Numbered from the stretch's first letter, positions 181 to 60,829 are shown. The stretch: 64,000 nucleotides of DNA from Bacteroidales bacterium (GCA_038245405.1 JBBRSO010000002.1:2366-66365); one strand, 5' to 3'. Notes: generated by a model not told the origin, from the sequence alone. A program made the numbers and translations.

Positions 181-242
181 AATTTTAAAAGTGAACAGAT
201 TGTGCCATGCATCCGGGGGCGATGAGTTTTTTGCATACTGAT

Positions 243-944
243 ATGAAATTAAAATTTTTTATATACAGCTTTCTATTGGCAGCGGCCTTTCTATTGAAAT
301 ATAATTATGCGACAGGTCAGGAAAAAACTTTGTTGGAAACCGATTGTGAAAGCCACATCGAGATCCATGGCTCATCAAATGTTAATCAATTCCAATTGAT
401 TAACCATAATCCCAAAATTATCAGGCTTCCGGGCGGGGTTGAGGGCAAACAGCGTTACCAGCGTATCGAAGTTCCCGTTAATCAATTTAAAGGCGGCAAT
501 AACCGGTTGCGGAATGATTTTCTCGAAATGGTCAATGCTTCCGAATATCCTTTTATTATTATGGCCATTGAGCCGCGCAGTTTGGCAGAATGCAGGAAAA
601 ACAAGGGATTGTCTGATTTCAAAACAATAATCACCATCGCGGGCGTATCCAATAGCTATGTTGTGCCTTGCGGAATTGATACCTGTGAAAGTTCAGGCTA
701 TGTGCTTAAAGGTAATCTTGTAGTTAAATTAACGGATTTTGGGATTGAACCCCCTCAGAAATTTTTTGGGCTTGTGAAAGTCAATAACGAGGTTCTTATT
801 GACTATGTTTTCAGGTTTCAGACTGATGATGCCATTTTTCGGTTATCGATGCGTGAACAAACGGATTTATTTCTCACTCAGAAAGATCATTATACAAGTG
901 AGTTCCATCGAATACCTTTAAAATTTGAAAATACAATGAGATGA
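243..944 (+). CDS. secreted protein of unknown function (possibly YceI-like fold), first gene of the copper cluster
   Basis: The ORF track gives 207-944. The internal ATG at 243 starts a signal peptide (MKLKFFIYSFLLAAAFLL). The stop overlaps the next start (ATGA at 941-944), suggesting an operon with the oxidase. Function was not recognised with confidence. Confidence 0.5.
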   Translation: MKLKFFIYSFLLAAAFLLKYNYATGQEKTLLETDCESHIEIHGSSNVNQFQLINHNPKIIRLPGGVEGKQRYQRIEVPVNQFKGGNNRLRNDFLEMVNASEYPFIIMAIEPRSLAECRKNKGLSDFKTIITIAGVSNSYVVPCGIDTCESSGYVLKGNLVVKLTDFGIEPPQKFFGLVKVNNEVLIDYVFRFQTDDAIFRLSMREQTDLFLTQKDHYTSEFHRIPLKFENTMR

Positions 945-3114
945 AATTTAAAACAACTTTATTACTCTTAGCTTTATTTGTGGCAGCATTTACTGCACAG
1001 GCTCAAACAGATACTACTACTTACCAACTCACTCTGCGGCAGGAAACCGTGAACAAAGCCGGCAAAGACGTCAAGGGCATGACCATCAACGGGCAGATAC
1101 CCGGCCCAACACTGCGTTTTACCGAGGGGGATTATGCTGTTATATATGTCAAAAATGAGATGGATGTTGAGACTTCAATCCACTGGCATGGACTTTTATT
1201 GCCAAACTTTTATGATGGGGTACCCTATCTGACAACCCCACCCATTAAGCCCGGGGGAATCCAGAAATATGAATTTCCCTTAAAGCAATCCGGTACTTAT
1301 TGGTATCACTCACATACGATGCTTCAGGAACAAAGTGGCGTCTATGGTTCCATCGTGATTGAGCCCATAGAAAAGAAACTTGATTTTGACAAGGAACTGG
1401 TTTTGGTCTTGTCCGACTGGATCAATGAAAAACCGATGAATGCCCTGAGAACCCTGAAGCGGGGAAGTGAATGGTACCAAATAAAAAAAGGAACTGCTAA
1501 TCCTTTGAACCGCGTCATTTCCAGAGGAGCTTTGGGGGCACAGCTTAAATTTTGGAAACAACGTATGAATGGTGCAGACATTGCCGATATCTATTATCCG
1601 GCATTTCTGATAAACGGCAAGCAAAAACAGGAATATCCAGATTTAAAACCGGGAGAAAAAGTCAGGCTTCGCATTATCGACGGTGCGGCTTCAACCTCTT
1701 TCTAGATGACCTTCGGCGGGGTTGATCCTACCTTGGTTTCAGCCGACGGTAACAATGTTATACCAGTCGAGCGAAACAAAACCTTCATAGCCATTGCTGA
1801 AACCTATGATTTTATTGTAACGATTCCCGAAAACGGGGAAATTGAATTCCGGGCCACGGCTGCTGATGGTTCCGGGACAACGTCTGCCTATCTGGGACAA
1901 GGGAAAATCCTAGCTGCTCCGGATGTTCCCAAACCAGATAAGATTGGGATGATGAAACAGATGGCCAAAATGGATATGCGCATGGGTGCCCCGGCTTTAA
2001 AATTCAGACCGAAAAAGGATGATCCCAAAAAAATGAAAGATAAATGGGGACTGCAGATGGAAGGAAAAATGAATATGGCTATGGGGGACATGAAAGAGGG
2101 AAGCCAATCGGACGATACGAATTACAACTATTTGAGGTCTCCGGTAAAAACAACCTATCCGAAGGATGCACCAGTGCAAGAAATTTTGCTCAACCTAACA
2201 GGAAACATGAAACGTTATATCTGGAGCCTGAACGGCATTCCCCTTTCGGAAACGGGCAAAATAAAAATTAAGCAGGGAGAGGTCACCAGGATTACTTTGA
2301 ACAACCTGACAATGATGGATCATCCGATGCACTTGCATGGCCACTTCTTCAGGGTAATCAACAAAAATGGGGATTACTCTCCGCTTAAACACACGGTTAA
2401 TGTACCTGCCATGAATCAAGTTACTATTGAATTTTATGGACAAGAATACGGCGACTGGTTCTTCCATTGTCATATTCTCTATCATTTAGTGGGTGGGATG
2501 GCCAGGGTTATTAGCTACGATACTCCACGCGATCCCAGGTTGACAGGGTATCCTTTGAAGAAGCTCGTTCATGAAACCAATCGTTATTATACCTGGGGTT
2601 TGGCTGATCTGGCATCGCATAAAACAGCTTTGAACCTGGTTTCATCCAACATTAGAAACCAGTTTAACCTAAATGCCGAATATGGCTGGAACCAAAAAAT
2701 GGAGGCTGAATTTACTTATGAACGCTATTTGTACGATTATATCCGTGTATTTGCCGGTGTGAACGTGGAAAATACCAATCCAAACAGTCTTAACGATATT
2801 ATGACCACTGCCGTGGCCGGAATACGGTGGTTTACCCCATACATGTTTAACATGGACCTACGAATTGATAATGAGTTAAGGCCGAGGATCGGAATTGGCC
2901 GGGACTTGATGGTGTTTCCCCGGTTGTTAGCATTTGGATATTATGAATACAAATTTGACTTCGGCTGGGTCAACGATCTTTCGCCAAATAAAAATTTCGA
3001 AAAGGAAATTATTTGGAACGCCGGACTTGAATACATTCTCTCAAAGAATTTTTCTTTGATGCCAGCTTCGATAACCGCTTTGGTGTAGGTGGAGGTTTAA
3101 CTATAAGGTTCTAA
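941..3114 (+). pseudogene. multicopper oxidase (CopA/CueO-like) with a C-terminal beta-barrel-like extension, interrupted by an in-frame TAG and a terminal frameshift
   Basis: ORFs 941-1705 and 1706-3088 are in the same frame and are separated only by TAG 1703-1705. Together they carry the four MCO copper-ligand motifs (SIHWHGLL, YWYHSH, HPMHLHGH, HCHILYHLVGGM). Around the T-run at 3047-3060 the reading frame shifts. The alternative frame reads DASFDNRFGVGGGLTIRF* and ends at TAA 3112-3114. Confidence 0.8.
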
Positions 3115-3207: not shown

Positions 3208-3452
3208 GACAAATTCGATGTTTTGTGCTCGAAAATGTATGAATTTTGTAATTTATTTCAACAATTTTGTAACACTCTTCAAAGTAAAACTTTCCACCTT
3301 TGCAAACAGATAAATTAAAATTTTCTCAGACATAGAAAATGAAATGATTTATATCTTACATAAGGGAATAAATATTCAATATCAAAATGGGCAACAGCAT
3401 ATCTGAAGAATGGGCAACAGCATATCTGAAGAAAAATCTAATTCAAAAAGAC
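3208..3452 (+). promoter_or_regulatory. conserved upstream/leader region of the Met-rich protein gene (copy 1)
   Basis: About 245 bp align by eye at roughly 85% identity with 18986-19229, upstream of the paralog. Conserved elements are AATTTTGTAA at 3242-3251 and 3263-3272 (21-bp phasing), the palindrome TTTGCAAA at 3299-3306, and a perfect 23-bp tandem repeat TGGGCAACAGCATATCTGAAGAA at 3388-3410 and 3411-3433. Confidence 0.45.
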
Positions 3453-3995
3453 ATGAAAAATAAAAAAATGACTTCTACCATAATGGCTTCCTTGCTTATG
3501 CTCATGGGGTGCTTTATACCTGTCAACTCTTTTGCTCAAACAACAAACAAAGCTGTAGAGATGAAAGATGGTAAAATGATGGTTATTACAGATGGTAAAA
3601 CAATGCCTATGACCACTGAAATGACAATGAATAACGGAACAAAGTTTATGAAAAATGGCGAATTCATCACTAAGGACGGGAAAAAAATGAAGATGAAAGA
3701 AGGTGATAAGATGGATATGAGCGGGAATTTGACGCATGGTGATATGATGAACCAAGGTGATATGATGAACAATGATTACTATATGATGAAAAATGGTAAA
3801 ATGATGATGGTTATGAAGGACGGGAACGAAATGCCCATGACCAAAGATATGACTATGAAAAACGGAACCAAATTTATGATGAGTGGTGAATATATCATGA
3901 AAGACGGTAAAAAAATGAAAATGAAAGAGGGTGACAAGATCAATATGAACGGGAATATAAGTCATGGCGAAAAGATGATGGAAGGTAAGAAATAA
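3453..3995 (+). CDS. secreted methionine-rich tandem-repeat protein, putative periplasmic Cu(I)-binding protein
   Basis: The start was moved from 3387 to the ATG at 3453 because the paralog has a stop in the equivalent upstream frame. Signal peptide MKNKKMTSTIMASLLMLMGCFIPVNSFAQ. 34 of 151 mature residues are Met. There are two internal repeats of about 65 aa. Confidence 0.8.
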   Translation: MKNKKMTSTIMASLLMLMGCFIPVNSFAQTTNKAVEMKDGKMMVITDGKTMPMTTEMTMNNGTKFMKNGEFITKDGKKMKMKEGDKMDMSGNLTHGDMMNQGDMMNNDYYMMKNGKMMMVMKDGNEMPMTKDMTMKNGTKFMMSGEYIMKDGKKMKMKEGDKINMNGNISHGEKMMEGKK

Positions 3996-4282
3996 GAAAC
4001 CTGGGCGAAAACCTAAATTCACCTATAAAGGAATGAAGGAAGCGATGGGAAAATGAAATGATGAATAAGGAAAACCAGTCAGAACAGAAATAATACAATA
4101 ATCAAAATTAAACCAGGAATTATTTATTGATAAAGAAATAATGATTTAAATAAATTATTCGGGGTTGGGATTATAACGATTTATGACTTTTTGTAATTGA
4201 AAATTAATTTAATAGTTAAAAATCAGATTTGTGCATACTATGAAGCGTATTATATATTCACTTAATAAATAAGGAGGTTATT

Positions 4283-4426
4283 ATGGACATGGTACACGAT
4301 CCGGCAGCTTATGGATACGGGTTTCCCTGGCATTGGATTTTTGGAATAATTGTAGTTATTCTTGTTGGTTTTATAATTTTTAAGTTCATACAGCGAAAAA
4401 AGAAACAAAAATTCGATTCACACTGA
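4283..4426 (+). CDS. small (47 aa) single-pass membrane protein
   Basis: It is below the ORF-track cutoff. ATG 4283 is preceded by a canonical AAGGAGG (4271-4277) with a 5-nt spacer. Translation: MDMVHDPAAYGYGFPWHWIFGIIVVILVGFIIFKFIQRKKKQKFDSH*, i.e. an aromatic/Trp motif, one TM helix and a basic tail. Confidence 0.5.
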   Translation: MDMVHDPAAYGYGFPWHWIFGIIVVILVGFIIFKFIQRKKKQKFDSH

Positions 4427-4617
4427 GTTTTTCAAATAAGTCCTGTTCAACTACAGACTTTGATTAGTCGGTGTGTAGTTGCAAAAGAGAATCTTTTATT
4501 ATCGATTTGTTTTCGTAACAAAGTGAATCTTTATTGGAATAAGTAAAACTATGTTATCAGAACATTTCATTTACATTTTGAAATTCCTCAAATCATGTAG
4601 AAATTAAAATCTTAATT

Positions 4618-5133
4618 ATGAAAACCAGGATTATTCTTATTCTAAGCATCCCTGTCCTTTTATATGGCTGCAGCCAGACAAGCGACAAGGGACTAGGAAA
4701 TGGAACAGCGTGGGCGGTTGGATCATTCGATTCCAATGGCAAGCAGATCTATCTCAATTCCACAAGTCAACGCGGAACTCCAATCACTTATACCGGAGGT
4801 CCTGTAATGGGAATGATGATGACCGGAGGGAATCTTGCCTGCGCATCATGTCATGGTATTGATGGAAAGGGAGGTAAGCATGTGATGCATATGGAAGTAA
4901 TGGATTCCCCGGATATTCGTTGGACTGCATTGTCAATGCACCATCATGATAAAGGAGAAGCTGACTCATTAAAACAGCATAATGAAGAGGTTTATACCTT
5001 CGAAAACTTTAAAAACTCTGTTGAGAACGGCAAACATCCTGATGGAGATGAGGTCAGTAAGGATATGCCCCGCTGGAAAATGAGTGATGCAGATCTTAAA
5101 GATTTAATGGATTATCTTAAGTCATTGCAATAA
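4618..5133 (+). CDS. c-type cytochrome-like lipoprotein (CxxCH)
   Basis: Lipoprotein signal (LLYGCSQ). Haem-c motif in NLACASCHGIDGKGG, preceded by a Met run (GPVMGMMMTGG). Confidence 0.7.
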   Translation: MKTRIILILSIPVLLYGCSQTSDKGLGNGTAWAVGSFDSNGKQIYLNSTSQRGTPITYTGGPVMGMMMTGGNLACASCHGIDGKGGKHVMHMEVMDSPDIRWTALSMHHHDKGEADSLKQHNEEVYTFENFKNSVENGKHPDGDEVSKDMPRWKMSDADLKDLMDYLKSLQ

Positions 5134-5190
5134 CTGGCGCAATTTAAAGCCAGAATTTAAATTTTAAACTAACTTTTAATGTGAAATGTC

Positions 5191-5904
5191 ATGAGTTTAA
5201 GAAACATCTCAGGTTGTCTGATTTTATTCATTGGGACAGCATTTCCTGTAACCGGACAAGAAAATGAAAAAGGGAGCATGGCTGATATGTTTGTTCATCC
5301 TTTTCTGACGCATATGGCATTACCTGACCCGCCGGGAACAATGAGCCTGCGGTTAACTGCTTTTCAGCAAAGAATGGGATCGACGGTTGGTCAGGACTTA
5401 GGTGTACATATTGAAGCCGGTTTATTGCCAGGATTGGGAATACATATACGAAGTGACGGCATTAAGACGTCCCCTTACTCTGAAGTAATGTTAATGTACA
5501 GTTTTCTTCATGATGCAAACTATAATAATGGTTTAAGTATTTTCGGGCAGGTAAGCCTTCCTACAGGACCTGTTGAGTCAAATGCACTGAAGTATTTGTT
5601 TGGATTATCAGGTAGATTAACCATTCCTAAAATTATGGTTATGGACGCAAATATGCATATCAATTTAGCCGATAAAATGGCAGAATATGAAAGTTCATTT
5701 ATTTTTAAAGCAAGTAAGATGCTTTATCCTGAACTGGAATTCAGAGGGGTAATAAACAAAGATGCTATAAGTCTTTATTCACTTCTGGGTCTTAAATTCA
5801 GGATAGCTGACGAAATGGCCATTGGGGTTGGAATTCAGACTCCTATTACAACAACAAGAGAGTATGATACTCAGGCTTTAATGACTCTGGGAATTGCATT
5901 CTGA
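5191..5904 (+). CDS. putative outer-membrane beta-barrel protein
   Basis: Signal peptide (LILFIGTAFPVTGQ), alternating beta-strand pattern, and a C-terminal ...LGIAF*. Family not recognised. Confidence 0.55.
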   Translation: MSLRNISGCLILFIGTAFPVTGQENEKGSMADMFVHPFLTHMALPDPPGTMSLRLTAFQQRMGSTVGQDLGVHIEAGLLPGLGIHIRSDGIKTSPYSEVMLMYSFLHDANYNNGLSIFGQVSLPTGPVESNALKYLFGLSGRLTIPKIMVMDANMHINLADKMAEYESSFIFKASKMLYPELEFRGVINKDAISLYSLLGLKFRIADEMAIGVGIQTPITTTREYDTQALMTLGIAF

Positions 5905-5907
5905 TAA

Positions 5908-6027
5908 TCCCCTGACCCTCCAGAATTTTGGGGAATTGCCTCATTGGCTATTTTTATAGGAACCATAATAACCTATCCTATGAATTGGTGGATTGTTTCA
6001 ATTGGATGGAAACACGGAATGGCTTAG
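5908..6027 (+). pseudogene. relic of the C-terminus of a DUF4396-like membrane protein
   Basis: An open frame with no start codon begins right after the previous stop. It reads SPDPPEFWGIASLAIFIGTIITYPMNWWIVSIGWKHGMA* (TAG 6025-6027). From memory this resembles the last TM helix and tail of DUF4396 proteins found in copper loci. Only about 39 codons remain. Confidence 0.45.
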
Positions 6028-6075
6028 AGATTTATAATTGATTAGTGTAAATAAACCTATTTAAAATGAAGTAAA

Positions 6076-6681
6076 ATGATTAAAAGTATTATCCTAGGAT
6101 TAGCAATAGCTGGAACAGCTTTGGTAGCCTGCACTGGCACCGGAAACAAATCATTAGATGGCAATAACAACAGTAATGATATTAAGACCATATCTCAAAC
6201 TGATAATTCAACAGAATCAAAATTATCAGTTACAGATGTAGAGAAATCAGTTTCAATTAAAGGAATTGTTAGCGCATATTTAAAATTAAAAAATGCGTTT
6301 ACTGAAGACAATTCTGATGCTGCTGCCAAAGCAGGAAAGGCAATTGAAACGGCATTAAATAATTTTGATAAAACTAACATAACTGCTGATCAAAAGAAAA
6401 AATTTGAAGATATTGAAGTCGATGCAAAAGAACATGCAGAGCATATTGGGAAGAATAACGGAAATATTGCGCATCAGCGTGAACATTTTGAACTACTGAG
6501 CAAAGACATTTATGATCTTGTAAAAGATTTTGGGCCAGGACAAGCCTTATATAAAGATTTTTGTCCGATGTACAATAACGGGAAAGGTGCATTTTGGTTA
6601 AGTGAAACCAAAGAAATAAAAAACCCTTATTTTGGTAAATCAATGCCCTCCTGTGGCACAATTAAAGAAGAAATTAAATAG
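6076..6681 (+). CDS. DUF3347 domain-containing lipoprotein
   Basis: Lipoprotein signal (TALVACTG). The C-terminal ...DFCPMYNNGKGAFWLSETKEIKNPYFGKSMPSCG is characteristic of DUF3347 proteins in Bacteroidota metal loci. Confidence 0.75.
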   Translation: MIKSIILGLAIAGTALVACTGTGNKSLDGNNNSNDIKTISQTDNSTESKLSVTDVEKSVSIKGIVSAYLKLKNAFTEDNSDAAAKAGKAIETALNNFDKTNITADQKKKFEDIEVDAKEHAEHIGKNNGNIAHQREHFELLSKDIYDLVKDFGPGQALYKDFCPMYNNGKGAFWLSETKEIKNPYFGKSMPSCGTIKEEIK

Positions 6682-6691
6682 CAGGAACCTC

Positions 6692-7147
6692 ATGAAAAAG
6701 CTTCTTGTTGTTACTGGCATCCTATTTATTGCCATTCAATTTATAAGACCATCTCATAATAAAAAAGAACAGGTTCTGTCAGATGATATTTCAAAAGCAC
6801 TCATGGTTCCGGACAGTATTCAGAGTATATTAAAAAATTCCTGTTATGACTGTCATAGCAATAATACCCGATATCCCTGGTATTCAAATATACAACCCGT
6901 ATATTGGTTTATGAATAACGATATTAAGAAGGGTAAAAAGGAATTGAACTTTGATGAGTTTGGAAGTTATTCATCAAGAAGGCAACTAAGTAAACTAAAT
7001 GGAATCGAAAATGCAATAACAGAAGAGATCATGCCTCTCTCATCATATTTATTGATGCATAATACTGCCAGGCTTAGTACAAATGAAAAGACTATGCTGA
7101 TAAAATGGGCTCAACAATCAGAAGATAGCCTGTCAGCCAGTGAATAA
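6692..7147 (+). CDS. haem-binding domain-containing protein
   Basis: The start was moved to ATG 6692 (MKKLLVVTGILFIAIQF). The motif NSCYDCHSNNTRYPWYSNIQPVYWFMNNDIKKGKKELNFDEF matches the Haem_bd family. Confidence 0.75.
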   Translation: MKKLLVVTGILFIAIQFIRPSHNKKEQVLSDDISKALMVPDSIQSILKNSCYDCHSNNTRYPWYSNIQPVYWFMNNDIKKGKKELNFDEFGSYSSRRQLSKLNGIENAITEEIMPLSSYLLMHNTARLSTNEKTMLIKWAQQSEDSLSASE

Positions 7148-7166
7148 AGATGATTTCTAATCATCT
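7148..7166. terminator. hairpin between convergent genes (possible bidirectional terminator)
   Basis: AGATGATT (7148-7155), loop TCT, AATCATCT (7159-7166). This is a perfect 8-bp stem between the stop at 7147 (+) and the stop at 7180 (-). There is no clear U-tract. Confidence 0.3.
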
Positions 7167-7179
7167 TAGTGTTATGATA

Positions 7180-9300
7180 TCATTTTATTTTCAGAAGCCT
7201 TGCATTGATAGCAACAATCACCGTGCTTAAAGACATAAGGGCCGCGCCCAGTGCAGGAGTTAGTAACACACCCCATGCATATAGTGCTCCTGCTGCCATA
7301 GGGATTGCTATAGTGTTGTAACCTGTAGCCCATATAAGATTCTGAATCATTTTCCGGTAGGTGGCATGGGAAAGCTTCAATATAGCAACAACATCCAATG
7401 GATTACTTCTTACCAATATTACGTCTGCCGTTTCGACCGCTACATCAGAACCCGCTCCTATAGCAATACCAAGATCCGCCTGGGCAAGCGCCGGTGCATC
7501 GTTAACTCCATCACCGGTCATTGCTACTAATACGCCTCTTGATTGAACCTCCTTCACCTTGGCGGCTTTGTCCTGGGGCAGGACTTCTGCAAAGTATTCA
7601 TCCAGTCCGATCTGGTCTGATACCCATTTGGCTGTCGCTTTATTATCACCTGTTAGCATCATACACCGGATATTCAATGCTTTAAGGGCATCGATAGCTT
7701 GTTTTGCTTCTGGCCTCACAATGTCTGCAAGGGCAATTGCTCCTTTCAGATTGCCATCGACGAGGATAAACACGACCGTTTTTCCCTGTGCCTGCAGTGG
7801 TTCTATACGATTGTCGGTTATGTCAATGTTCTGTTCATGCAGGAAGCCCGGACTAACTACCTTGACCTCTTTGCCATCAACCTTTCCCTCTGCCCCTTTG
7901 CCCGGAATGCTTTTAAAGTTTTCTACGGGAATCTTCTTTTCTGAAGAAGCGGCGATGGCTTTAGCTATGGGATGTTCAGAATTTGCGTCTACAGAGGCGG
8001 CATATTTACGCAGTGTTTCTTCATCGATATCCTGAGAAAGTACAAGAATATCGGTAACACCAAAGCGACCCTCCGTTAACGTACCTGTCTTATCAAAAAT
8101 AACGGCCTGAAGCTTTCGCGCACCTTCAAAGGAAACCCGGTTACGAATGAGCAAGCCGTTTTTCGCAGCCAATGCTGTGGAGACGGCTATAACAAGCGGT
8201 ACGGCCAGACCAAGTGCATGAGGGCATGCAATTACCATCACGGTCACTGCGCGCTCGATAGCGAATGAAAAATCCTTGCCCGTAAGAACCAACCAGATAA
8301 CAAGGGTTGTCACGCCACCACCAAGGGCCACTATTGTAAGCCACTTTGCAGCAGTATTTGCCAGATCCTGGGTTTTTGATTTGCTTTCCTGTGCCTGCTT
8401 TACCAGACCAATAACCTGAGACAGGAATGAATCCTTACCGGTACCTTTAACCTCAATAGTCAGTGAACCCTCCCCATTAATCGAACCACCGATTACTTTC
8501 CCTCCTGCCTTTTTGATTGCCGGTGGTGATTCTCCGGTGAGCAACGCCTCATTTACTGAGCTCTCCCCTTCAACTATTACTCCATCAGCGGGGATTTTCT
8601 CACCTGGTTTAATCAGAACTTTATCATTCACAGCCAGCTCTCCAAGAGGCACATCTTTCACACTGCCATCCGGCATAAGTTTATGAGCATCAGACGGCAT
8701 TAATTTAGCTAGTTCCTCCAGTGCCTTCGACGCGCCCATCACGGACTTCATCTCAATCCAGTGCCCGAGCAACATGATATCTATAAGTGAAGCAAGTTCC
8801 CAGAAAAACATTTTACCAGCTAACCCGAATACAACAGCACTGCTGTAAAAATAGGCGGTTGAAATTGCCACGGAGATAAGCATCATCATTCCGGGCTGCC
8901 GGGCTTTTAATTCTGAGAACAAGCCTTTTAGAAACGGCCATCCACCATACCAAAATACCGCAGAAGAAAGTGCGAAGAGTACATAGATGTCACCATTAAA
9001 ATGAATGGTTTCCCGCAGTCCCACCAATTTCTGGAGCATTGGTGAGAGTACAAGAATCGGGAGGGTCAATATGAGCGATAACCAGAACCGCTTTCTGAAA
9101 TCTGCCGCCATATGAGCATGATGATCTGGCTGGTCATGGGGCATTTTAGCTTCGGCTTCAAGCCAGTTCTTCATGTCATGCCCTTTCGGACGGCCTTCCT
9201 TAAGATAGATAGCATATGCTTTTTTGGCCACTTCGTCGTGTTCCGGCTTCGATTCCTTAGCCTTAGGTTTGTTGTGATTATGTTCCATTTTTGTTTTCAT
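7180..9300 (-). CDS. copB: heavy-metal (copper) translocating P1B-type ATPase, CPH/CopB type
   Basis: Motifs TGES (LLTGESPP), CPH TM motif (VIACPHALGLAVP), DKTGT (FDKTGTLTEG) and GDGVNDAP. The N-terminus is His-rich (MEHNHNKP..., HDQPDHHAHM) and has no CxxC domain. Confidence 0.93.
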   Translation of the reverse strand: MKTKMEHNHNKPKAKESKPEHDEVAKKAYAIYLKEGRPKGHDMKNWLEAEAKMPHDQPDHHAHMAADFRKRFWLSLILTLPILVLSPMLQKLVGLRETIHFNGDIYVLFALSSAVFWYGGWPFLKGLFSELKARQPGMMMLISVAISTAYFYSSAVVFGLAGKMFFWELASLIDIMLLGHWIEMKSVMGASKALEELAKLMPSDAHKLMPDGSVKDVPLGELAVNDKVLIKPGEKIPADGVIVEGESSVNEALLTGESPPAIKKAGGKVIGGSINGEGSLTIEVKGTGKDSFLSQVIGLVKQAQESKSKTQDLANTAAKWLTIVALGGGVTTLVIWLVLTGKDFSFAIERAVTVMVIACPHALGLAVPLVIAVSTALAAKNGLLIRNRVSFEGARKLQAVIFDKTGTLTEGRFGVTDILVLSQDIDEETLRKYAASVDANSEHPIAKAIAASSEKKIPVENFKSIPGKGAEGKVDGKEVKVVSPGFLHEQNIDITDNRIEPLQAQGKTVVFILVDGNLKGAIALADIVRPEAKQAIDALKALNIRCMMLTGDNKATAKWVSDQIGLDEYFAEVLPQDKAAKVKEVQSRGVLVAMTGDGVNDAPALAQADLGIAIGAGSDVAVETADVILVRSNPLDVVAILKLSHATYRKMIQNLIWATGYNTIAIPMAAGALYAWGVLLTPALGAALMSLSTVIVAINARLLKIK

Positions 9301-11266: not shown

Positions 11267-13636
11267 TTAAGTTTTGTTTTGATTCCATCTCCAGTTGAGG
11301 ATTTCAGGCATATCTAAGCCATTTTTGTCAATATAGATTTCGTGTTCGATGAGCTTGTTCTGTAACATCTTTTTCAGTTTGGCACCCACTGCACCCAATC
11401 CTGGCACGCGAGCTATAACATCAAGCGCCAGATGAAACCGGTCAAGACCGTTTAATACCGTCATGTCGAAGTATGTAGTTATTGTGCCTTCTTCATTATA
11501 ACCATGGACATGCATGTTTGCATGGTTGTTGCGGCGGTAAGTCAGCCGATGGACCAGTGAAGGATATCCATGGAAAGCAAAAATAACCGGCTTGTCTTTC
11601 GTAAATAACGCATCGAATTTCTGCTCATCAATACCGTGGGGATGCTGCGTATTTGATTCCAGTTTCATTAAATCAACCACATTAATCACACGGATCTTCA
11701 GGTCGGGCAAATTTTCACGAAGTATGGAAACTGCGGCAAGGGTCTCCAGTGTAGGCACATCGCCACAGCAGGCCATCACCACATCGGGTTCTTTACCATT
11801 ATCGCTGCTGGCCCATTGCCATACTCCAATTCCTTCTGTACAATGCTGGATTGCCTCTTCCATAGTTAACCACTGAGGGGCCTGGTATTTGCCTGCAATA
11901 ACAACATTAACATAATCACGGCTCCTCAGACAATGGTCCCATACCGACAACAGACAGTTGGCATCAGGAGGAAGATAAACCCTGACTATTGATGCTTTCT
12001 TATTTACAACATGACCAATAAAACCGGGGTCCTGGTGAGTAAAACCATTATGAGCCTGTTGCCATACATGAGAAGCGAGCAGATAATTCAGAGATGCAAT
12101 TCCCCGTCGCCACGGCAATTCAGCACATACCTTCAGCCATTTGGCATGCTGGTTAAACATCGAATCAATTATATGTATAAAAGCCTCATAGCAGTTAAAC
12201 AATCCGTGCCTCCCGGTGAGCAGATATCCCTCCAGCCAGCCTTCGCATTGATGCTCGCTCAACATTTCAATTACCCGGCCATCAGTGGAAAGAAACTCAT
12301 CGTTTTCTTTAGTTCTGGCTTCCCACTGCCGGTTGGTGGTTTCAAATACGGCGTTCAGCCTGTTTGAAAGCGTTTCATCGGGACCGAAGATCCGGAAATT
12401 TCGTTGCTCCTTATTGAGATTGTCAACCTCTCTCAGGAACACTCCCAGCTCGTGTGTGTCGGCAGCATCGACAGATCCCGGTGACGGCACTTTAACGGCA
12501 AACTTCCGGAAGTCAGGCATTTTAAGGTCGTGCAGCAGCAAGCCACCATTCGCATGGGGATTAGCGCCCATTCTTCGTTCTCCATGTGGTGCCAGTTCGG
12601 CCAATTCAGATAAAAGGCTACCACTCTTATCAAAAAGTTCTTCGGGCTTATAGCTTTTCATCCAGTTTTCAAGCAGTTTCAGATGATGAGGATGTTCGGC
12701 ATCTACCAACATCGGAATCTGATGGGCCCGGAAGGTACCCTCGATTTGCAACCCATCAACTACTTTGGGCCCTGTCCATCCTTTGGGTGACTTCAGTACG
12801 ATCAATGGCCAACGTGGCCGGATAGTGTCGCTGTTGTTTCTTGCGTTGCCCTGTATTCTTAATATTTCATCAACGGTCTTTTCCATTACGGAGGCCATTA
12901 GCTGATGCATTTGCTCAGGGTCATCACCTTCCACATAATAAGGGATCCAGCCACATCCACGCAGAAATTGATCCAGTTCTTCAGGTTCTATTCGGGCTAG
13001 TATCGTTGGGTTGGCTATCTTGTAACCGTTAAGATGCAGGATTGGCAATACGGCGCCATCGGTGATCGGATTCAGAAATTTGTTGGAATGCCATGCAGTA
13101 GCCAATGGACCTGTTTCAGCTTCCCCATCGCCTATAACACAGGCAACAATCAGACTGGGATTGTCGAATGCAGCTCCGAAGGCATGACTAAGCGAGTACC
13201 CCAGCTCACCTCCCTCATGAATTGACCCCGGTGTTGTAGGCGCAACATGGCTCGAAATTCCACCTGGAAACGAAAACTGTTTGAAAAGCTTCTTCATCCC
13301 GGCTTCATCACGTGTGATGTCGGGATATACTTCACTCCATGTACCTTCAAGATAAACATTACCCACAATAGCAGGTCCACCATGTCCGGGACCAGCAATG
13401 TAAAACATGTCCAGATCATATTTTTTAATGACCCTGTTCAAATGAACATAGATAAAATTCTGTCCTGGCGTTGTACCCCAGTGCCCCAGAAGCATCGACT
13501 TCACGTGGGACAATTTCAGAGGCACATGCAACAAAGGATTATCACGAAGATAAAGCTGACCGACAGAAAGATAGTTTGCAGCACGCCAATAAGCGTGTGT
13601 TTTCCTCAATTCTTCTGATGATAAAGTTGTATTCAT
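11267..13636 (-). CDS. xfp: phosphoketolase (xylulose-5-P/fructose-6-P)
   Basis: 789 aa. The N-terminus ...[23 protein letters not shown]..., [11 protein letters not shown] and the [12 protein letters not shown] motifs are diagnostic. Confidence 0.95.
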
Positions 13637-19229: not shown

Positions 19230-19670
19230 ATGAAAAATAGAAAATTTAATACTCTGGCATTATCGCTTATGCTTATGGGATGCTTTATATCAGGGAGCTC
19301 TTTTGCTCAAACCACCACCAAAGCTGTAGAGATGAATCAAGGAAATATGATGAATAATGGTGATACATTGAATCATAACAAGATGATGAATCATGGTAAT
19401 ATGATGAATAATAATGATACGTTGAGTCATGGTAAGATGATGAATAATGATTACTACATGATGAAAGCCGGTAAAATGATGATGGTCATGAAGGACGGGA
19501 AAGAAATGCCCATGAATAAAGACATAACTATGAATAATGGGACCAAATGTATGACGAATGGCGAATACGTCACAAAAGACGGTAAAAAAATGAAAATGAA
19601 AGAGGGCGACAGGATTGATATGAACGGGAATATGAGTCATGGCGAAATGATGAATAGAGGTAAGAAATAA
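19230..19670 (+). CDS. secreted methionine-rich protein, paralog of 3453-3995
   Basis: 146 aa. Signal peptide MKNRKFNTLALSLMLMGCFISGSSFAQ. 25 of 119 mature residues are Met. It has one copy of the ~65-aa unit, preceded by (N/H)G(N/K)MMN repeats. Confidence 0.8.
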   Translation: MKNRKFNTLALSLMLMGCFISGSSFAQTTTKAVEMNQGNMMNNGDTLNHNKMMNHGNMMNNNDTLSHGKMMNNDYYMMKAGKMMMVMKDGKEMPMNKDITMNNGTKCMTNGEYVTKDGKKMKMKEGDRIDMNGNMSHGEMMNRGKK

Positions 19671-19837: not shown

Positions 19838-20224
19838 ATGAAGTACTACATTGAAAAAACCACCAATTATTCTTTCGACGAAGCCGTTGAAAAAGTGACC
19901 GAAGAACTAAAAAAAGAAGGCTTTGGCGTACTGTCAGAAATTAACATCCACGAAAAACTGAAAGAAAAGCTGGATGTGAATTTCAGAAAATATAAGATTT
20001 TAGGAGCTTGTAACCCATCAAAGGCTTATGAAGCCTTGCAGGCAGAAGACAAAATAGGCACCATGCTGCCCTGTAATGTAATTGTACAGGAACTGGAAGA
20101 CGGAAAAACCGAAGTGGCTGCAGTTGACCCGACAGCTTCGATGCAGGCCGTGGATAACGAAAAACTTGCATCCATTGCCGGCGAAATAAAAGGAAAACTT
20201 GAAAAGGTAATCAGGAATTTGTAA
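19838..20224 (+). CDS. DUF302 domain-containing protein
   Basis: 128 aa. ...SFDEAVEKVTEELKKEGFGVLSEINIHEKLKEKL...YKILGACNP...LPCNVIVQE... is typical of DUF302. Confidence 0.85.
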   Translation: MKYYIEKTTNYSFDEAVEKVTEELKKEGFGVLSEINIHEKLKEKLDVNFRKYKILGACNPSKAYEALQAEDKIGTMLPCNVIVQELEDGKTEVAAVDPTASMQAVDNEKLASIAGEIKGKLEKVIRNL

Positions 20225-20268
20225 AAACTAGCAAGCAGAAAATCTATAAATGCAGGAGGAAACTGTAA

Positions 20269-20808
20269 ATGGAAACAAAAGAAAAAACACACAGTATCTA
20301 CTTGAAATTTTTTGTGATGATAGGCACATCTATGGTTGCAATGTTCTTTTTGATGTATTTGAATTCCTACCAAATCATCGATCACTTTTGGTTTAGTGAA
20401 ACGCGGTTATACATGACTTTGATTATGGGCGGGGCTATGATAGTGATAATGCTCTTGTTTATGATCAGGATGTATACTAACAGCAAAGCAAACTCAGCGA
20501 TTATTATTGGTGGCATCGTCCTGCTTGCTGCTTCGGTATGGCTGGTCAGAAGTCAGGTTACAGTCAGCGATGTTGATTATATGGAAGGTATGATCCCTCA
20601 TCATTCCATCGCCATTCTCACAAGTAAAAATGCAGTGATCGAAGATGTGAGGGTTAGGGAACTTGCAGATGGAATCATAAAAGCTCAACGCAAGGAAATC
20701 AAGGAAATGGAATGGTTGATTAAAGACATCAGGAAAAATGGTTTGGTGAAAACAACGGCAGAATCAGAATCTCGTTCGGTCCCGGAATTCGCAAGCACAA
20801 CGGAGTAG
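20269..20808 (+). CDS. DUF305 domain-containing membrane protein
   Basis: 179 aa. N-terminal TM helices, then ...YMEGMIPHHSIAI...ELADGIIKAQRKEIKEMEWL..., the DUF305 signature. Confidence 0.8.
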   Translation: METKEKTHSIYLKFFVMIGTSMVAMFFLMYLNSYQIIDHFWFSETRLYMTLIMGGAMIVIMLLFMIRMYTNSKANSAIIIGGIVLLAASVWLVRSQVTVSDVDYMEGMIPHHSIAILTSKNAVIEDVRVRELADGIIKAQRKEIKEMEWLIKDIRKNGLVKTTAESESRSVPEFASTTE

Positions 20809-20892: not shown

Positions 20893-21823
20893 TCACAACC
20901 AGCCTCCGGAAAAACCTGCACGCCGTAAACCGTTAATTATGTATGGACAGTTCCGCATCAGTCTCCATAAAAGGCCTGTTCTATAATTCTCTATCATCGC
21001 AATTATTGGTCCCTGATTGATCCCAAAATGCCACGGAGAGACCCAGCCATAAGGATTTTGGGATTTATGAGGATATGTAGGATTAAATGTCGCTTTGAAA
21101 CCATAAGGATTACCCGTTTTCAACCTTAACTCGTGCGTCATATAGTCAAGCGCCGGCAACACGATCTCAGGAGCAAAAGGTAGGGAAGCTACGACTGCCC
21201 ATGGTGCAATGGTGCCATCATCAGGACCATACGGTACACCGCGACCTTTGTAATCGAAATACCGGTGCTTCTGCCCATCTGTTATACGGGCACCAGGACC
21301 GGGGCCGTCGCTTGCGGTAATTCCCCAGGAATTCCGGCCATAACCTGCAAATTTATGCGGGTTGTCGATCGCATATTGTTGCTGAACGTAGGTCCTGCTC
21401 GTCAGGCGTATCGGCATCAAAGTAAACACCAGTTGTAAGAGCGCCAGCGAATAAAATGGCGCTGTCGACAGTCGACAGTTCGCATTTCCAGGCGCGCTGA
21501 CCTGTTTTCATGTCGAGGAAATGATAATAAAAACCGTGGTAGCCTGTTGCGTCAGGTTCAGGTCCCTGAAGGCTGTTCCAGAAAAACCGAAGTGTTGTAA
21601 GTACTGTTTCAATGGCAGAATCACGAGTGATAAACCCTCGCTCAACTGCTACAGGGTAACTTGCCAATGCCAGACCTGTGGCAGCAATACTCGAAGGCCA
21701 ATTTGGTGCGGTCTTGTCTGAGACCAATCCATTTTCCGGATTGGTCTCATGAAGGAAGTAACCGAATGTCTCGCACTGAAGTCTTTCAAGTTCGGTTTCG
21801 GCTGTGGTTTTCTTACTGCTCAT
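20893..21823 (-). pseudogene. glucoamylase-family/GH144-like (PF10091-type) gene with an internal out-of-frame deletion
   Basis: ORFs 21353-21823 and 20893-21429 overlap in different frames. The N-part ends ...ALTTGVYFDADTPDEQD and the C-part homology starts at TYVQQQYAIDNPHKFAGYG...GITASDGPG...YGPDDGTIAPWAVVASLPFAPE. The junction is at about 21386-21400. The central part of the family is absent. Confidence 0.7.
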
Positions 21824-29268: not shown

Positions 29269-30420
29269 ATGAAATCAGTATTCATAATAGTTTTTCTTTT
29301 TGTAGTATCCGGTGTATCGGTTTTTTCACAGGAAGGAAAAAAAGCTTTCACAATCAAGGGTTATGTCAGTACACTTCAAACTGTTATGTTTGACTCATTG
29401 AATGGTCAATTTATAAATGATAATCTTCTGCATAACAGAATTAATCTAAAGGGGTACCTCAATGATCATATCAGCGTTTCAGCAGAATTCAGAAACAGAA
29501 TGTTTACCGGCGATCAGGTAAGATTAAATAATCAATATGCAGAGTTAATTGGAAAAGATCAGGGCTGGATGGATATGTCATGGAATATATTGAATAAGCA
29601 ATCATTCCTTCTCAATACAACAATTGACCGTTTCTGGATTGACTTTAATTATTCCAGGTTTCAGGTAAGTATAGGCCGTCAGCGAATAAACTGGGGTCAG
29701 ACATTTGTCTGGAATCCAAATGATATTTTTAACTCCTATTCCTTTTTTGATATTGATTATATTGAAAAGCCGGGAAGTGATGCTGTTCGGATTCAGTACT
29801 ATCTTTCCCCTTCTTCGACTTTTGATTTCGCAATTAAGGCTAATAGTGATAATCAGATTACTGTTGGCGGACTCTTCAAATTCAATAAATGGGGATATGA
29901 CATCCAACTTCTTGCAGGATATGTGGATAACAAAGACTTCGTTGCCGGAACAGGCTGGTCGGGTTCATTAGGTTCAATATCATTTCGTGGGGAGACATCG
30001 TGGTTTCAGCCGGTTAAATATTTCGCAGATTCTACCGGTCGTGGCTTGTTTACAGTATCCTTTGATAAAACATTTAAGAAAAATTCGACAGCGCAACTAC
30101 AGCTAATGTATTGTAACAATCCATTAAAACTAAGTGATTTTAGTTCATTTTACTATGGAAGCCTGTCAGCAAAAGACCTGGCTTTTTCAAAATTTACAGC
30201 TTTCTGGCAGTTTGTATGGGCGGTAAATCCTTTATTTAACCTGGGCATGTCAGTTATGTGGTTCCCTGACCTCAATGGCTATTTTGCGGGTCCCTCCCTT
30301 GATTTTTCACTCGCTGAAAATGTCGACTTTTCATTAATATGGCAGCACTTCGACAGCCAGATGAGCGGTCAAAGACAAAGAATTAATCTTGGCTTTTTAA
30401 GGGTGAAATACAGCTTTTAG
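29269..30420 (+). CDS. putative outer-membrane beta-barrel protein, last gene of the LolA-like/ABC cluster
   Basis: 383 aa. Signal peptide, aromatic-rich alternating strands and a terminal ...LRVKYSF*. Confidence 0.6.
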   Translation: MKSVFIIVFLFVVSGVSVFSQEGKKAFTIKGYVSTLQTVMFDSLNGQFINDNLLHNRINLKGYLNDHISVSAEFRNRMFTGDQVRLNNQYAELIGKDQGWMDMSWNILNKQSFLLNTTIDRFWIDFNYSRFQVSIGRQRINWGQTFVWNPNDIFNSYSFFDIDYIEKPGSDAVRIQYYLSPSSTFDFAIKANSDNQITVGGLFKFNKWGYDIQLLAGYVDNKDFVAGTGWSGSLGSISFRGETSWFQPVKYFADSTGRGLFTVSFDKTFKKNSTAQLQLMYCNNPLKLSDFSSFYYGSLSAKDLAFSKFTAFWQFVWAVNPLFNLGMSVMWFPDLNGYFAGPSLDFSLAENVDFSLIWQHFDSQMSGQRQRINLGFLRVKYSF

Positions 30421-60193: not shown

Positions 60194-60207
60194 TGGATAG
60201 TCAGACC

Positions 60208-60681
60208 TTATTCATGATGATAAGGTTCTCCTTTCATAATTGTGAATACTCTATAAAGCTGTTCAAGAAACAATAATCGTACCAGTTGATGAGGGAAAGT
60301 CATCTTCGACAATGAGATATTATAATCTGCCCTTTTATAAAGATCGTCTGAAAAGCCCCACGCTCCGCCGATTATAAACAATATCCGTTTTTTGGGAAGA
60401 AGAAATACTTTCTCGAGCCATACTGAGAATTCTATGGTCCTTAACTCCTTTCCTCTTTCGTCAAGCAAGATCACATAGTCATCATCGCTTATGAACTGGA
60501 GGATCTTAGCTGCCTCTTTTACCTGATGTTCCTGAACTGGCATATTTTTTGTGTTCTTTACATCTTGAACGGTAAGTATTTCAAACCCTGTATATTTTTT
60601 TATCCGGTTTGTATAAAGATCGGCTAAAGCTGCAATGTTCGTATCATTTGTTTTGCCAGTCTGCAAGAGGGCGATCTTCAT
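60208..60681 (-). CDS. rlmH: 23S rRNA (pseudouridine1915-N3)-methyltransferase
   Basis: 157 aa. SPOUT fold with ...ILFIIGGAWGFSDDLYKRADYNISLSKMTFPHQLVRLLFLEQLYR... Confidence 0.9.
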   Translation of the reverse strand: MKIALLQTGKTNDTNIAALADLYTNRIKKYTGFEILTVQDVKNTKNMPVQEHQVKEAAKILQFISDDDYVILLDERGKELRTIEFSVWLEKVFLLPKKRILFIIGGAWGFSDDLYKRADYNISLSKMTFPHQLVRLLFLEQLYRVFTIMKGEPYHHE

Positions 60682-60821
60682 AAGAATCCTGAATATTTGA
60701 TTTATACGGAATTATTACAAAAATAGCATTTAAAAGATACACAAACACATTATCCTGTGCTCATTGTACAACAGGATGACCCTTAAGAATGAAATTTCCA
60801 TACGAATTATGAAAATATTGT

Positions 60822-60829
60822 TAAATTTG
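60822..60829 (+). promoter_or_regulatory. candidate -7 promoter box
   Basis: TAAATTTG (TAnnTTTG), 39 nt upstream of ATG 60868. Confidence 0.3.

Follow-up and report, generated by a model that had tools for sequence, protein, structure and literature searches.

The locus at nucleotides 941-3114 of the 64,000-nucleotide stretch of Bacteroidales DNA analysed here (GCA_038245405.1 JBBRSO010000002.1:2366-66365, hereafter the window, with coordinates counted from its first letter) is probably a genuine, recently inactivated pseudogene of a Bacteroidota copper-resistance oxidase fused to a 12-stranded β-barrel. The fusion is real, but it is widespread and already noted, and the window copy is dead. 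Recent pseudogenisation and assembly error, between which the initial annotation had left the choice, were the right alternatives to weigh, and we favour the former because the other scanned genes, one glucanase gene apart, are untruncated and independent short-read contigs agree with the window almost throughout. The locus has the following features.

941-1006, plus strand: Sec-type signal peptide, MKFKTTLLLLALFVAAFTAQA/Q, read from the sequence with the cleavage site judged by eye
941-1702, plus strand: N-terminal oxidase fragment that spans cupredoxin domain 1, runs into domain 2 and holds HWHG and WYHSH (Pfam, identity to PcoA)
1703-1705, plus strand: premature TAG within cupredoxin domain 2 (ancestral TGG, Trp; G>A at 1704)
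1706-3061, plus strand: remainder in the original frame, with the rest of domain 2, the Met-rich loop, domain 3, the linker, barrel strands 1-10 and most of strand 11 (Pfam Cu-oxidase_2, homolog alignment)
2063-2078, plus strand: junction left where 114 nt (38 codons) of the Met-rich loop were deleted in frame between 11-nt direct repeats AATGAATATGG (alignment with relatives L001-L004)
2498-2587, plus strand: conserved oxidase-barrel linker, MARVISYDTPRDPRL...HETNRYY, with a short helix (invariant S6, Y7, T9, D12, R14, P19 and E26)
2588-3114, plus strand: C-terminal 12-stranded outer-membrane β-barrel, read across the frameshift (AlphaFold2, Foldseek, conservation)
3061-3062, plus strand: 1-nt deletion, ATGGCC to ATGCC (nucleotide and protein alignments, three-frame translation)

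The oxidase gene

As initially annotated, the ORFs 941-1705 (254 aa) and 1706-3088 (460 aa) lie in the same frame, the TAG at 1703-1705 being the sole break between them, and none of the four copper-ligand motifs is missing, HWHG lying at 1181-1192, WYHSH at 1301-1315, HPMHLHGH at 2321-2344 and HCHILYHLVGGM at 2465-2500. They correspond to the ligand motifs HxHG, HxH, HxxHxH and HCHxxxHxxxxM of the CopA/PcoA type. Pfam searches with the repaired oxidase returned Cu-oxidase_3 (residues 34-142, E 2e-40), Cu-oxidase (residues 221-300, E 1.2e-15) and Cu-oxidase_2 (residues 412-526, E 9e-36), and by far the best NCBIfam match was TIGR01480 (copper_res_A), at 394.4 bits against a curated cut-off of 478.95 that was not reached. 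The protein shares 43.5% of its first 221 aligned amino acids with PcoA, the segment from 1706 to 3061 aligns colinearly with homologs of 740-800 aa, and the Foldseek neighbours of a full-length model, made for P0002 (the closest intact homolog among the matches listed, not the window protein), are three-domain multicopper oxidases. Judged by sequence, 941-3088 encodes a three-domain multicopper oxidase of the CopA/PcoA type.

The three cupredoxin domains, the four copper motifs, a Met-rich insert and a copper-resistance gene setting are shared with PcoA and CopA (TIGR01480) of the Escherichia coli pco and Pseudomonas syringae cop systems. A Tat signal peptide is typical of PcoA and CueO. The family to which the window copy belongs, by contrast, has a Sec-type signal: the oxidase N-terminus, MKFKTTLLLLALFVAAFTAQAQ, contains no twin-arginine motif (no RR), and an RR-like motif occurs in the N-terminus of only one of 120 homologs, whereas PcoA starts MLLKTSRRTFLKG, with SRRTFLKG. 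A second difference is the 200-aa outer-membrane barrel, which PcoA lacks.

Lesions in the window copy

The initial annotation had described two breaks in this gene, and both are borne out, but it had missed a 114-nt deletion and four substitutions at invariant residues. The first break is the TAG, for which a TGG (Trp) origin had been guessed correctly: nucleotide comparison finds TGG at the equivalent codon in 80/80 related genome loci, and protein alignment finds Trp there in 13 of 14 aligned homologs. The change from TGG to TAG splits the domain-1 from the domain-3 copper ligands, and the portion encoded after it has no signal peptide.

The second break is a frameshift that had been placed at the T-run 3049-3053. 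That position has to be revised, as the run is intact in the nucleotide alignment (it is the same in relative L001) and the main frame matches homologs through SKNFSLM to nucleotide 3061, which excludes homopolymer slippage there. Where relatives have TTGATGGCCAGC, the window has TTGATG-CCAGC, so that one G of a GG pair has been lost after 3061. The shifted main frame ends ...SLMPASITALV at the TAG 3086-3088, so that strand 11 is cut short and both strand 12 and the C-terminal Phe are missing. The alternative frame does supply the outer-membrane barrel terminus that had been recognised in it; it reads ...DASFDNRFGVGGGLTIRF* and terminates at 3114, the repaired barrel ending ...GGGLTIRF before TAA at 3112-3114. 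Phase variation can be dismissed at this site, since a GG pair is no repeat tract.

The 114-nt deletion is, by sequence comparison, specific to this lineage. The 38 deleted codons fall in a loop that is disordered in the P0002 model (residues 374-430, pLDDT <50), and the deletion is probably tolerated because short loops occur in other family members. The four unique substitutions lie at columns invariant in 120 homologs and are the highest count among 121 sequences (4 in the oxidase against a mean of 0.37 in comparable sequences; Poisson P 6e-4). With the TAG, the frameshift, the loop deletion and the four substitutions combined, the gene therefore yields no working oxidase.

The oxidase gene appears to have drifted for about 0.5-1% of neutral divergence, a figure that we infer. 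Measured against the nearest relative, pairwise dN/dS comes to 0.113, which is not above the 0.132 between intact relatives; any drift must therefore be very recent, and the signal of relaxed constraint is small.

Pseudogene, artefact or recoding

Three structural lesions lie in one 2.2-kb gene, and the probability that at least three of four lesions would fall in the oxidase gene is 2e-4, a clustering that is rare for random errors. The lesions are moreover of three unrelated kinds, none of them sitting in a long homopolymer, and one error mode does not account for a transition, a GG-pair deletion and a repeat-mediated 114-nt deletion together; the four unusual missense changes coincide in the same gene. 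Compared with Pfam families, the other scanned genes of the window are untruncated, including ORFs of 1242, 1229, 1050 and 1002 aa, with the exception of one glucanase gene that has an internal deletion of ~120 aa; such damage to a second gene also speaks for pseudogenisation. Independent Logan short-read contigs agree with the window at 5,370 of 5,371 nt where the two can be compared, with one SNP and zero indels. In-frame stops moreover interrupt the oxidase gene in three other genomes out of 80 representative ones, in two cases at a Trp codon, while the gene is uninterrupted in 77; we count this, too, on the side of pseudogenisation.

These observations argue against the reading that the oxidase-barrel gene is intact in the organism, with the TAG, the lost G and possibly also the 114-nt gap being sequencing, assembly or consensus errors or a strain chimera. 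We consider such an artefact distinctly less probable than inactivation, but several facts speak for it. The source looks metagenome-derived, and a mixed-strain consensus or a locally poor region could cluster anomalies in one gene. The same population was recovered only as contigs of 0.9-3.4 kb in two Logan runs, which points to a metagenomic source covered at modest depth; these contigs carry the SPOUT methyltransferase and DUF3347 genes and end short of the oxidase. Both Logan contigs break off at window position 6900, a possible sign that strains differ in the copper region. The dN/dS value, too, lacks a sign of long-term relaxation. Finally, the three other genomes with stops in the oxidase gene are all metagenome-assembled, so that errors at TGG codons are possible there.

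The lesion sites themselves were recovered from no independent assembly. Exact-product look-ups in independent assemblies gave no match for either oxidase fragment, the ATPase, the YceI-like gene, the DUF6799 gene, the cytochrome c gene or the gene at 5191-5904, and two exact-pattern scans of metagenome contigs for the oxidase returned nothing. A homolog search with residues from 1706-2500 likewise found no same-strain fragment, the best full-coverage match being 64% identical.

It is highly improbable that the gene is instead recoded or split, with the TAG read through or decoded as an amino acid, or with translation starting anew at the ATG next to it (TAGATG), and with the barrel end restored by a programmed frameshift. 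In favour of such a scheme, an ATG directly follows the TAG and the downstream frame is open to the conserved ...GGGLTIRF end. Yet TAG is an ordinary stop in the window, as had been noted from the neighbouring genes ending at 6679-6681 and 30418-30420 (it terminates 9 of 48 ORFs), no suppressor tRNA lies within the window, and all 80 relatives have plain TGG and no frameshift. A programmed frameshift is excluded by the unshifted relatives and by the shift site, TTGATGCC, which has no slippery heptamer. In addition, translation beginning at this ATG would yield a fragment that has no signal peptide and could not meet the exported N-terminal fragment, which holds half of the trinuclear copper ligands.

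A genuine pseudogene, the reading we prefer, would mean that the copper cluster has probably lost the function of its main periplasmic oxidase but kept the efflux ATPase and the accessory genes, which bears on the copper-tolerance annotation of this genome. Oxygen is a co-substrate of the oxidase, and the loss may, speculatively, reflect an oxygen-scarce habitat.

The copper-gene neighbourhood

The oxidase is flanked by the following genes.

207-944, plus strand: gene upstream of the oxidase, its exported product weakly YceI-like (ORF; Pfam YceI at E 2e-4, short of the curated cut-off)
3387-9300, ATPase on the minus strand: apparently intact copper genes for a DUF6799 Met-rich protein, cytochrome c, a predicted membrane protein, DUF3347, Haem_bd and a P1B-type ATPase (Pfam)

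The YceI-like gene and the oxidase gene share 4 nt (ATGA), where the stop of the former meets the start of the latter, and the two are therefore probably co-transcribed. The YceI-like gene is no conserved neighbour, matches being found in 2 of 80 loci and both times distant from the oxidase. In other genomes the oxidase is accompanied by DUF3347 (44/80 loci), the ATPase (43/80) and Haem_bd (16/80), and an annotated Chondrinema plasmid has the same partner genes beside it. The family neighbourhood comprises DUF3347, Haem_bd, P1B ATPase, DUF302 and DUF305 genes without pcoB, pcoC or pcoD; no PcoB, PcoC or PcoD homolog was found in the 1.46 Mb flanking the 80 loci or in the window. The GC profile showed nothing distinctive at the oxidase, and a scan for sigma-70 promoters and terminators, using a sigma-70 model unsuited to Bacteroidota, did no better than on shuffled sequences.

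The C-terminal barrel and its linker

The proposal that the oxidase is fused to a CopB-like outer-membrane domain holds for the fold. Structure prediction of the isolated ~200-aa tail with AlphaFold2 gave a barrel of 12 strands (pLDDT 84.6), and the same 12 strands recur in the full-length P0002 model (pLDDT 86.4, pTM 0.85). The best PDB match of the tail in Foldseek was PcoB (7pge; E 1.1e-6, TM 0.57-0.59), ~100-fold better than the next. The tail measured from the HCH motif is 216 aa long in most of 120 homologs and ends in Phe in 119 of them and in Tyr in one. Between oxidase and barrel lies a conserved 30-aa linker, RVISYDTPRDPRLTGYPLKKLVHETNRYY, with one His and zero Met, whose pLDDT rises from 42-66 in the isolated tail to 87-95 in the full-length P0002 model, where it is predicted to be ordered.

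Family membership, the other half of the proposal, did not follow. PF05275 (CopB) gave no match on the repaired protein at E up to 1, Pfam and NCBIfam yielded sub-threshold generic barrel matches only on the tail, and phmmer of the tail against PDB sequences found no match. Profile-profile comparison of the tail with CopB/PcoB by hhalign found nothing with a shallow profile; with a deeper profile it produced a full-length alignment that was non-significant (score 29.3, P 0.0016, probability 16%) and no better than shuffles, two of 20 block-shuffled controls having reached or approached it (31.5 and 29.1). The term 'CopB-like' therefore describes the predicted fold and probable role of the tail, not a family membership borne out by sequence.

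Like PcoB/CopB (PF05275, 7pge), the tail is predicted to form a 12-stranded antiparallel barrel, comparable in size, that ends in an aromatic residue, and it always has an oxidase as partner; PcoB itself is a 12-stranded barrel (PMC9210255). Residues inferred to face the lumen and conserved at >=90% include 11 acidic and 2 basic ones, the conserved lumen acids including E69, E71, D120, D124, D154 and E170 (tail numbering), and this acidic lumen recalls the electronegative pore of PcoB (PMC9210255). Unlike PcoB, the tail has no His/Met-rich disordered N-terminal domain, the place of which is occupied by the oxidase.

The fusion family in Bacteroidota

Homolog searches show the oxidase-barrel fusion in at least thousands of Bacteroidota proteins of 740-800 aa. 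Among the matches listed, most homologs span 96-100% of the repaired protein including the tail, all 120 are 732-912 aa long, and P0001 and P0002 are 83% identical to it at 100% coverage. The fusion was confirmed at 311 loci in representative genomes. When the barrel profile was run against 1.84 billion proteins it gave 186 matches, far too few to cover the large CopB family; the long ones inspected were all oxidases with a C-terminal barrel, and the short ones were mostly fragments, with one or two possible stand-alone proteins (P0386, P0340). Going by these sequence comparisons, the fusion is the standard architecture of the family and not peculiar to the window locus.

The architecture has been touched upon before. 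Residues 611-809 of G2EDV6 from Bizionia argentinensis were described in 2024 as porin-like and as somewhat similar to PcoB (PMC11213822), and this protein, by its description, has the same Bacteroidota architecture. Lac_CB10, a protein of 728 aa with three cupredoxin domains, probably has it as well, by description, although the paper does not mention a barrel (PMC10298561). Both were analysed in silico only, and both genes are described as intact, in contrast to the window copy with its stop, frameshift and shortened Met-rich loop.

A possible mechanism of intact family members

On the basis of structure prediction, conservation and the analogy with PcoA/PcoB, we tentatively propose, with confidence just short of even, that the family is a natural covalent PcoA-PcoB fusion in which an oxidase docked on the periplasmic mouth of the channel couples Cu(I) oxidation to Cu(II) passage, and that the barrel represents a previously unmodelled family found almost only in this fusion. 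The unfolded protein would cross the inner membrane via Sec, and the BAM machinery would insert the barrel with the C-terminal Phe as signal, while the oxidase would remain periplasmic, docked beneath it. Cu(I) captured by the Met-rich loop would be oxidised to Cu(II) by the oxidase, and Cu(II) would then cross the outer membrane via the acidic barrel lumen, one fused polypeptide doing the job of two Proteobacterial proteins, PcoA and PcoB. We take the Sec-type signal and the lack of separate PcoB, PcoC and PcoD in the regions searched as support for the barrel replacing a separate PcoB.

The Sec-dependent export and the order of an N-terminal functional domain, a short helix and a C-terminal 12-stranded barrel are also the classical layout of autotransporters (type Va; NalP, EspP), in which the barrel would be the translocator (type V) and the oxidase a surface-displayed passenger. 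Foldseek matches of the tail do include autotransporter, intimin and invasin β-domains (1uyn, E 4.9e-4; 4e1t and 4e1s, TM 0.50). We nevertheless consider this unlikely, as PcoB is the better structural match (NalP reaches a TM of only 0.29-0.38), the barrel has just ~175 residues and is much smaller than those of NalP and EspP, and the predicted helix of 7-9 residues is too short to span a pore. The conserved, predictedly packed linker, the whole-chain pTM of the P0002 model and the cation-channel-like conserved acidic residues of the inferred lumen also speak for a docked oxidase rather than a passenger.

A physical interaction between PcoA and PcoB has been proposed (PMC12509749), and the direction of copper flux through PcoB is disputed, uptake (PMC9210255) standing against efflux (PMC12509749). 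Behind the locus stands a large and experimentally unexplored family that unites both core Pco/Cop components of Proteobacteria in a single polypeptide, with export by Sec in place of Tat. The fusion supports the notion that PcoA and PcoB act as a physical unit and, if our proposal is true, would be independent genetic evidence for their debated physical and functional coupling, as well as a simpler system for deciding whether the barrel exports or imports copper.

Pfam has no model for the barrel, and such proteins are annotated just as 'multicopper oxidase domain-containing'. At least one laccase-oriented study does not mention the barrel.

An oxidase gene with a C-terminal barrel, interrupted in the window

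The region 941-3114 is a single gene-sized reading frame that, as the initial annotation had described, is split by a TAG codon and carries the four copper-ligand motifs of a multicopper oxidase:

941-1705, plus strand: ORF of 254 aa, in the same frame as the next
1706-3088, plus strand: ORF of 460 aa, divided from the first solely by the TAG at 1703-1705
1181-1192, 1301-1315, 2321-2344 and 2465-2500, plus strand: the four copper-ligand motifs

The joined protein has all three cupredoxin Pfam domains of multicopper oxidases, and its top NCBIfam match is the copper-resistance oxidase TIGR01480 (394 bits, below the curated cut-off of 479). A continuation in a second frame with a barrel-type terminus was likewise read correctly at the outset: it ends in ...DASFDNRFGVGGGLTIRF, followed by TAA at 3112-3114. 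The initial observation is real; it misplaced the frameshift and missed some of the lesions.

Using the repaired protein (read through the TAG and across the frameshift) as query, we found that the matches listed are 732-912 aa long and 59-83% identical, mostly with 96-100% query coverage including the tail, i.e. the ~200 aa beyond the last copper motif (HCH). Scanning one genome per species yielded 311 confirmed loci, 80 of which were retrieved for comparison; the closest, from Bacteroidales and Mariniphaga metagenome-assembled genomes, show 84-85% amino-acid and 87-89% nucleotide identity. The fusion architecture has been noticed before, since a 2024 genome analysis noted that the 809-aa oxidase of Bizionia argentinensis ends in a 'porin-like region ... 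with some similarity to PcoB' (PMC11213822). Another study built a model of a 728-aa 'Bacteroidetes CopA-laccase' and leaves the barrel unmentioned (PMC10298561), and the literature searched contains no experimental work on the oxidase-barrel fusion. The window locus is a degraded member of this widespread, known and uncharacterised family; the pseudogene itself is ordinary, and it is the family that merits experimental attention.

Lesions of the window copy and their predicted effects

The codon at the TAG position is TGG in 80 of 80 related loci, which indicates that the stop arose via a G-to-A change at 1704 and bears out the earlier guess of a tryptophan origin. The frame slip, by contrast, does not lie at the T-run 3049-3053 where it had been placed: in the protein alignment the main frame past this run still reads SKNFSLM, as in relatives, and in the nucleotide alignment the window has TTGATG-CCAGC versus TTGATGGCCAGC in relatives, one G of a GG pair being absent after 3061. 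Overlooked initially was that the Met-rich loop has lost 114 nt in frame, with two copies of AATGAATATGG flanking the deletion and the junction falling within 2063-2078. This loss may be harmless, because the loop is the sole disordered part of the full-length model and varies in length across the family. In addition, the window protein carries T161I, T187N, M371L and D439G, each at a position where all 120 homologs share one residue, the top count among 121 sequences; the 65 sequences whose nearest neighbour is similarly close have 0.37 such changes on average (Poisson P ~6e-4).

The TAG falls within cupredoxin domain 2 and would part the domain-1 from the domain-3 ligands of the trinuclear copper cluster, while a product restarting at the adjoining ATG would lack a signal peptide. 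Through the frameshift, PASITALV takes the place of the end of barrel strand 11, the whole of strand 12 and the final Phe; outer-membrane proteins generally need a C-terminal aromatic residue for recognition by the assembly machinery. Either lesion should be disabling by itself.

Genuine decay or artefact

Recoding of TAG, already deemed improbable in the initial annotation, was dismissed because TAG ends 9 of the 48 window ORFs and no tRNA gene lies within the window. As to the choice originally posed, recent pseudogenisation or two assembly errors, the lesions exceed two, and we consider the gene probably a genuine pseudogene. In a Pfam scan nearly all other window ORFs fit their families untruncated (a few have no Pfam match), and unbroken ORFs include those of 1242, 1229, 1050, 1002, 789 and 706 aa. 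Only one other gene is broken among the ORFs scanned:

20893-21823, minus strand: GH144-like beta-1,2-glucanase (Pfam 'Glycoamylase', PF10091), split into two overlapping ORFs

Against solved structures it lacks ~120 internal residues (~185-304 of 8xul_A), and its frames differ, so it is likely a second pseudogene of the window. If lesions were placed at random, three of four would fall in the 2.2-kb oxidase gene with P ~2e-4; the three are of unrelated kinds, none within a long homopolymer. Where testable, the window sequence is accurate: Logan contigs from SRR19962014 and SRR19962012 (loci L083-L085), matching window 57469-60827, 5792-6900 and 5998-6900, are 99.97-100% identical to it (a single SNP over 5,371 nt, no indel), and thus derive from the same population.

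We regard an artefact behind the oxidase lesions as less likely, even though no copy of the oxidase region was recovered from any independent assembly searched, and the source genome probably derives from a metagenome, where mixed strains can cause local consensus problems. Pairwise dN/dS is 0.113 against the nearest relative, not above the 0.132 between intact relatives, so that any decay must be recent; by a rough estimate, the nonsense change, the two indels and the four changes at invariant sites fit ~0.5-1% neutral divergence since constraint was lost. In-frame stops occur in the orthologous gene of 3 of the 80 representative genomes, all metagenome-assembled:

L002 (Mariniphaga sp.), ~3009-3011: TAG at the Trp of AGIRWFTPY
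L070 (Ohtaekwangia), ~11777-11779: TGA at the Trp of YYxWG
L067 (a further related genome), ~7743-7745: TAA in the Met-rich loop

The first two both hit conserved Trp codons, and the three stops reflect either repeated loss of the gene or a repeated error at TGG codons.

A predicted PcoB-like barrel outside PF05275

From the HCH motif to the end, most of the 120 homologs have 216 aa, and 119 terminate in Phe. AlphaFold2 prediction of the 205-aa tail (84 sequences) gave the barrel anticipated by the initial annotation, a short helix followed by 12 beta-strands (pLDDT 84.6, pTM 0.72); a full-length model of P0002, the closest intact homolog, has the same 12 strands and an ordered linker (pLDDT 87-95; pTM 0.85), which suggests a defined oxidase-barrel arrangement. 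The first Foldseek match of the tail in the PDB is the copper channel PcoB (7pge; E 1.1e-6, TM 0.57/0.59), with Omp33 next (2e-4), ahead of further small barrels, among them NanC and KdgM. PcoB likewise has 12 strands, and its pore is strongly electronegative (PMC9210255); in the oxidase-barrel family 11 acidic and 2 basic residues are conserved at at least 90% on the non-hydrophobic face defined by strand parity, which points to an acidic lumen.

The proposal of a CopB-like outer-membrane domain fused to CopA accordingly holds for the predicted fold and not for sequence homology. The repaired protein has no match to PF05275, the family of PcoB/CopB; phmmer of the tail against PDB sequences returned nothing; and although the hhalign alignment to CopB/PcoB spans the entire barrel (score 29.3), 2 of 20 block-shuffled controls scored as high or nearly so, so that a link fails at the sequence level. 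A barrel profile retrieved only 186 matches from 1.84 billion representative proteins; those long matches that were inspected are oxidases carrying the barrel at their C-terminus, and the short ones are mostly fragments. The barrel is a narrow family without a Pfam model and, on present evidence from modelling, would be PcoB-like in its working, yet no PF05275 member.

Two proteins from this profile search, P0386 (219 aa, with a signal-peptide-like N-terminal start) and P0340 (212 aa), give weak, partial profile matches, carry no oxidase motif or Pfam match, and may be one or two cases of rare stand-alone barrel relatives.

A possible copper route in the intact family

The family's signal peptides are Sec-type, whereas that of PcoA is Tat, and a Sec-type signal fits a protein that must arrive unfolded at the outer-membrane assembly machinery. 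Since an even strand number places both barrel ends towards the periplasm, the oxidase would be expected beneath the outer membrane. Conserved neighbours of the oxidase are DUF3347, a haem-binding domain protein, a P1B ATPase, DUF302 and DUF305; no PcoB, PcoC or PcoD homolog was found in 1.46 Mb around the 80 loci or in the window. On the simplest and most likely reading, Cu(I) pumped into the periplasm by the ATPase would be turned into Cu(II) by the tethered oxidase, and the Cu(II) would cross the outer membrane through the barrel. In Caulobacter, the N-terminal domain of PcoB is proposed to dock and stabilise PcoA and to take Cu(II) from it (PMC12509749); by analogy, the covalent fusion could be the natural equivalent of this docking. 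The direction of flux through PcoB is disputed, and export is hence only one option for the barrel. Display of the oxidase on the cell surface, as by an autotransporter, seems unlikely, since the structural match is weaker, the barrel is small and the helix is very short.

Other features of the copper neighbourhood

Directly downstream of the oxidase, at the 5' end of a DUF6799 Met-rich gene, a 23-nt unit, AATGGGCAACAGCATATCTGAAG, is perfectly duplicated in tandem (2.1 copies, window 3386-3433). Copper-associated genes, including two DUF6799 Met-rich paralogs, DUF302 and DUF305, lie in two patches ~16 kb apart (3387-3995; 19230-19670 and 19838-20808), with genes of central metabolism (phosphoketolase, acetate kinase, 6-phosphogluconate dehydrogenase) between them; in other genomes DUF302 and DUF305 directly adjoin the oxidase. 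Two Logan contigs from different runs both break off at precisely window 6900, within the gene for the haem-binding domain protein, which may mark a strain-variable junction. The P1B-type copper ATPase (7180-9300, minus strand) has an N-terminal DUF2934 and a His-rich stretch in place of a classical heavy-metal-associated domain.
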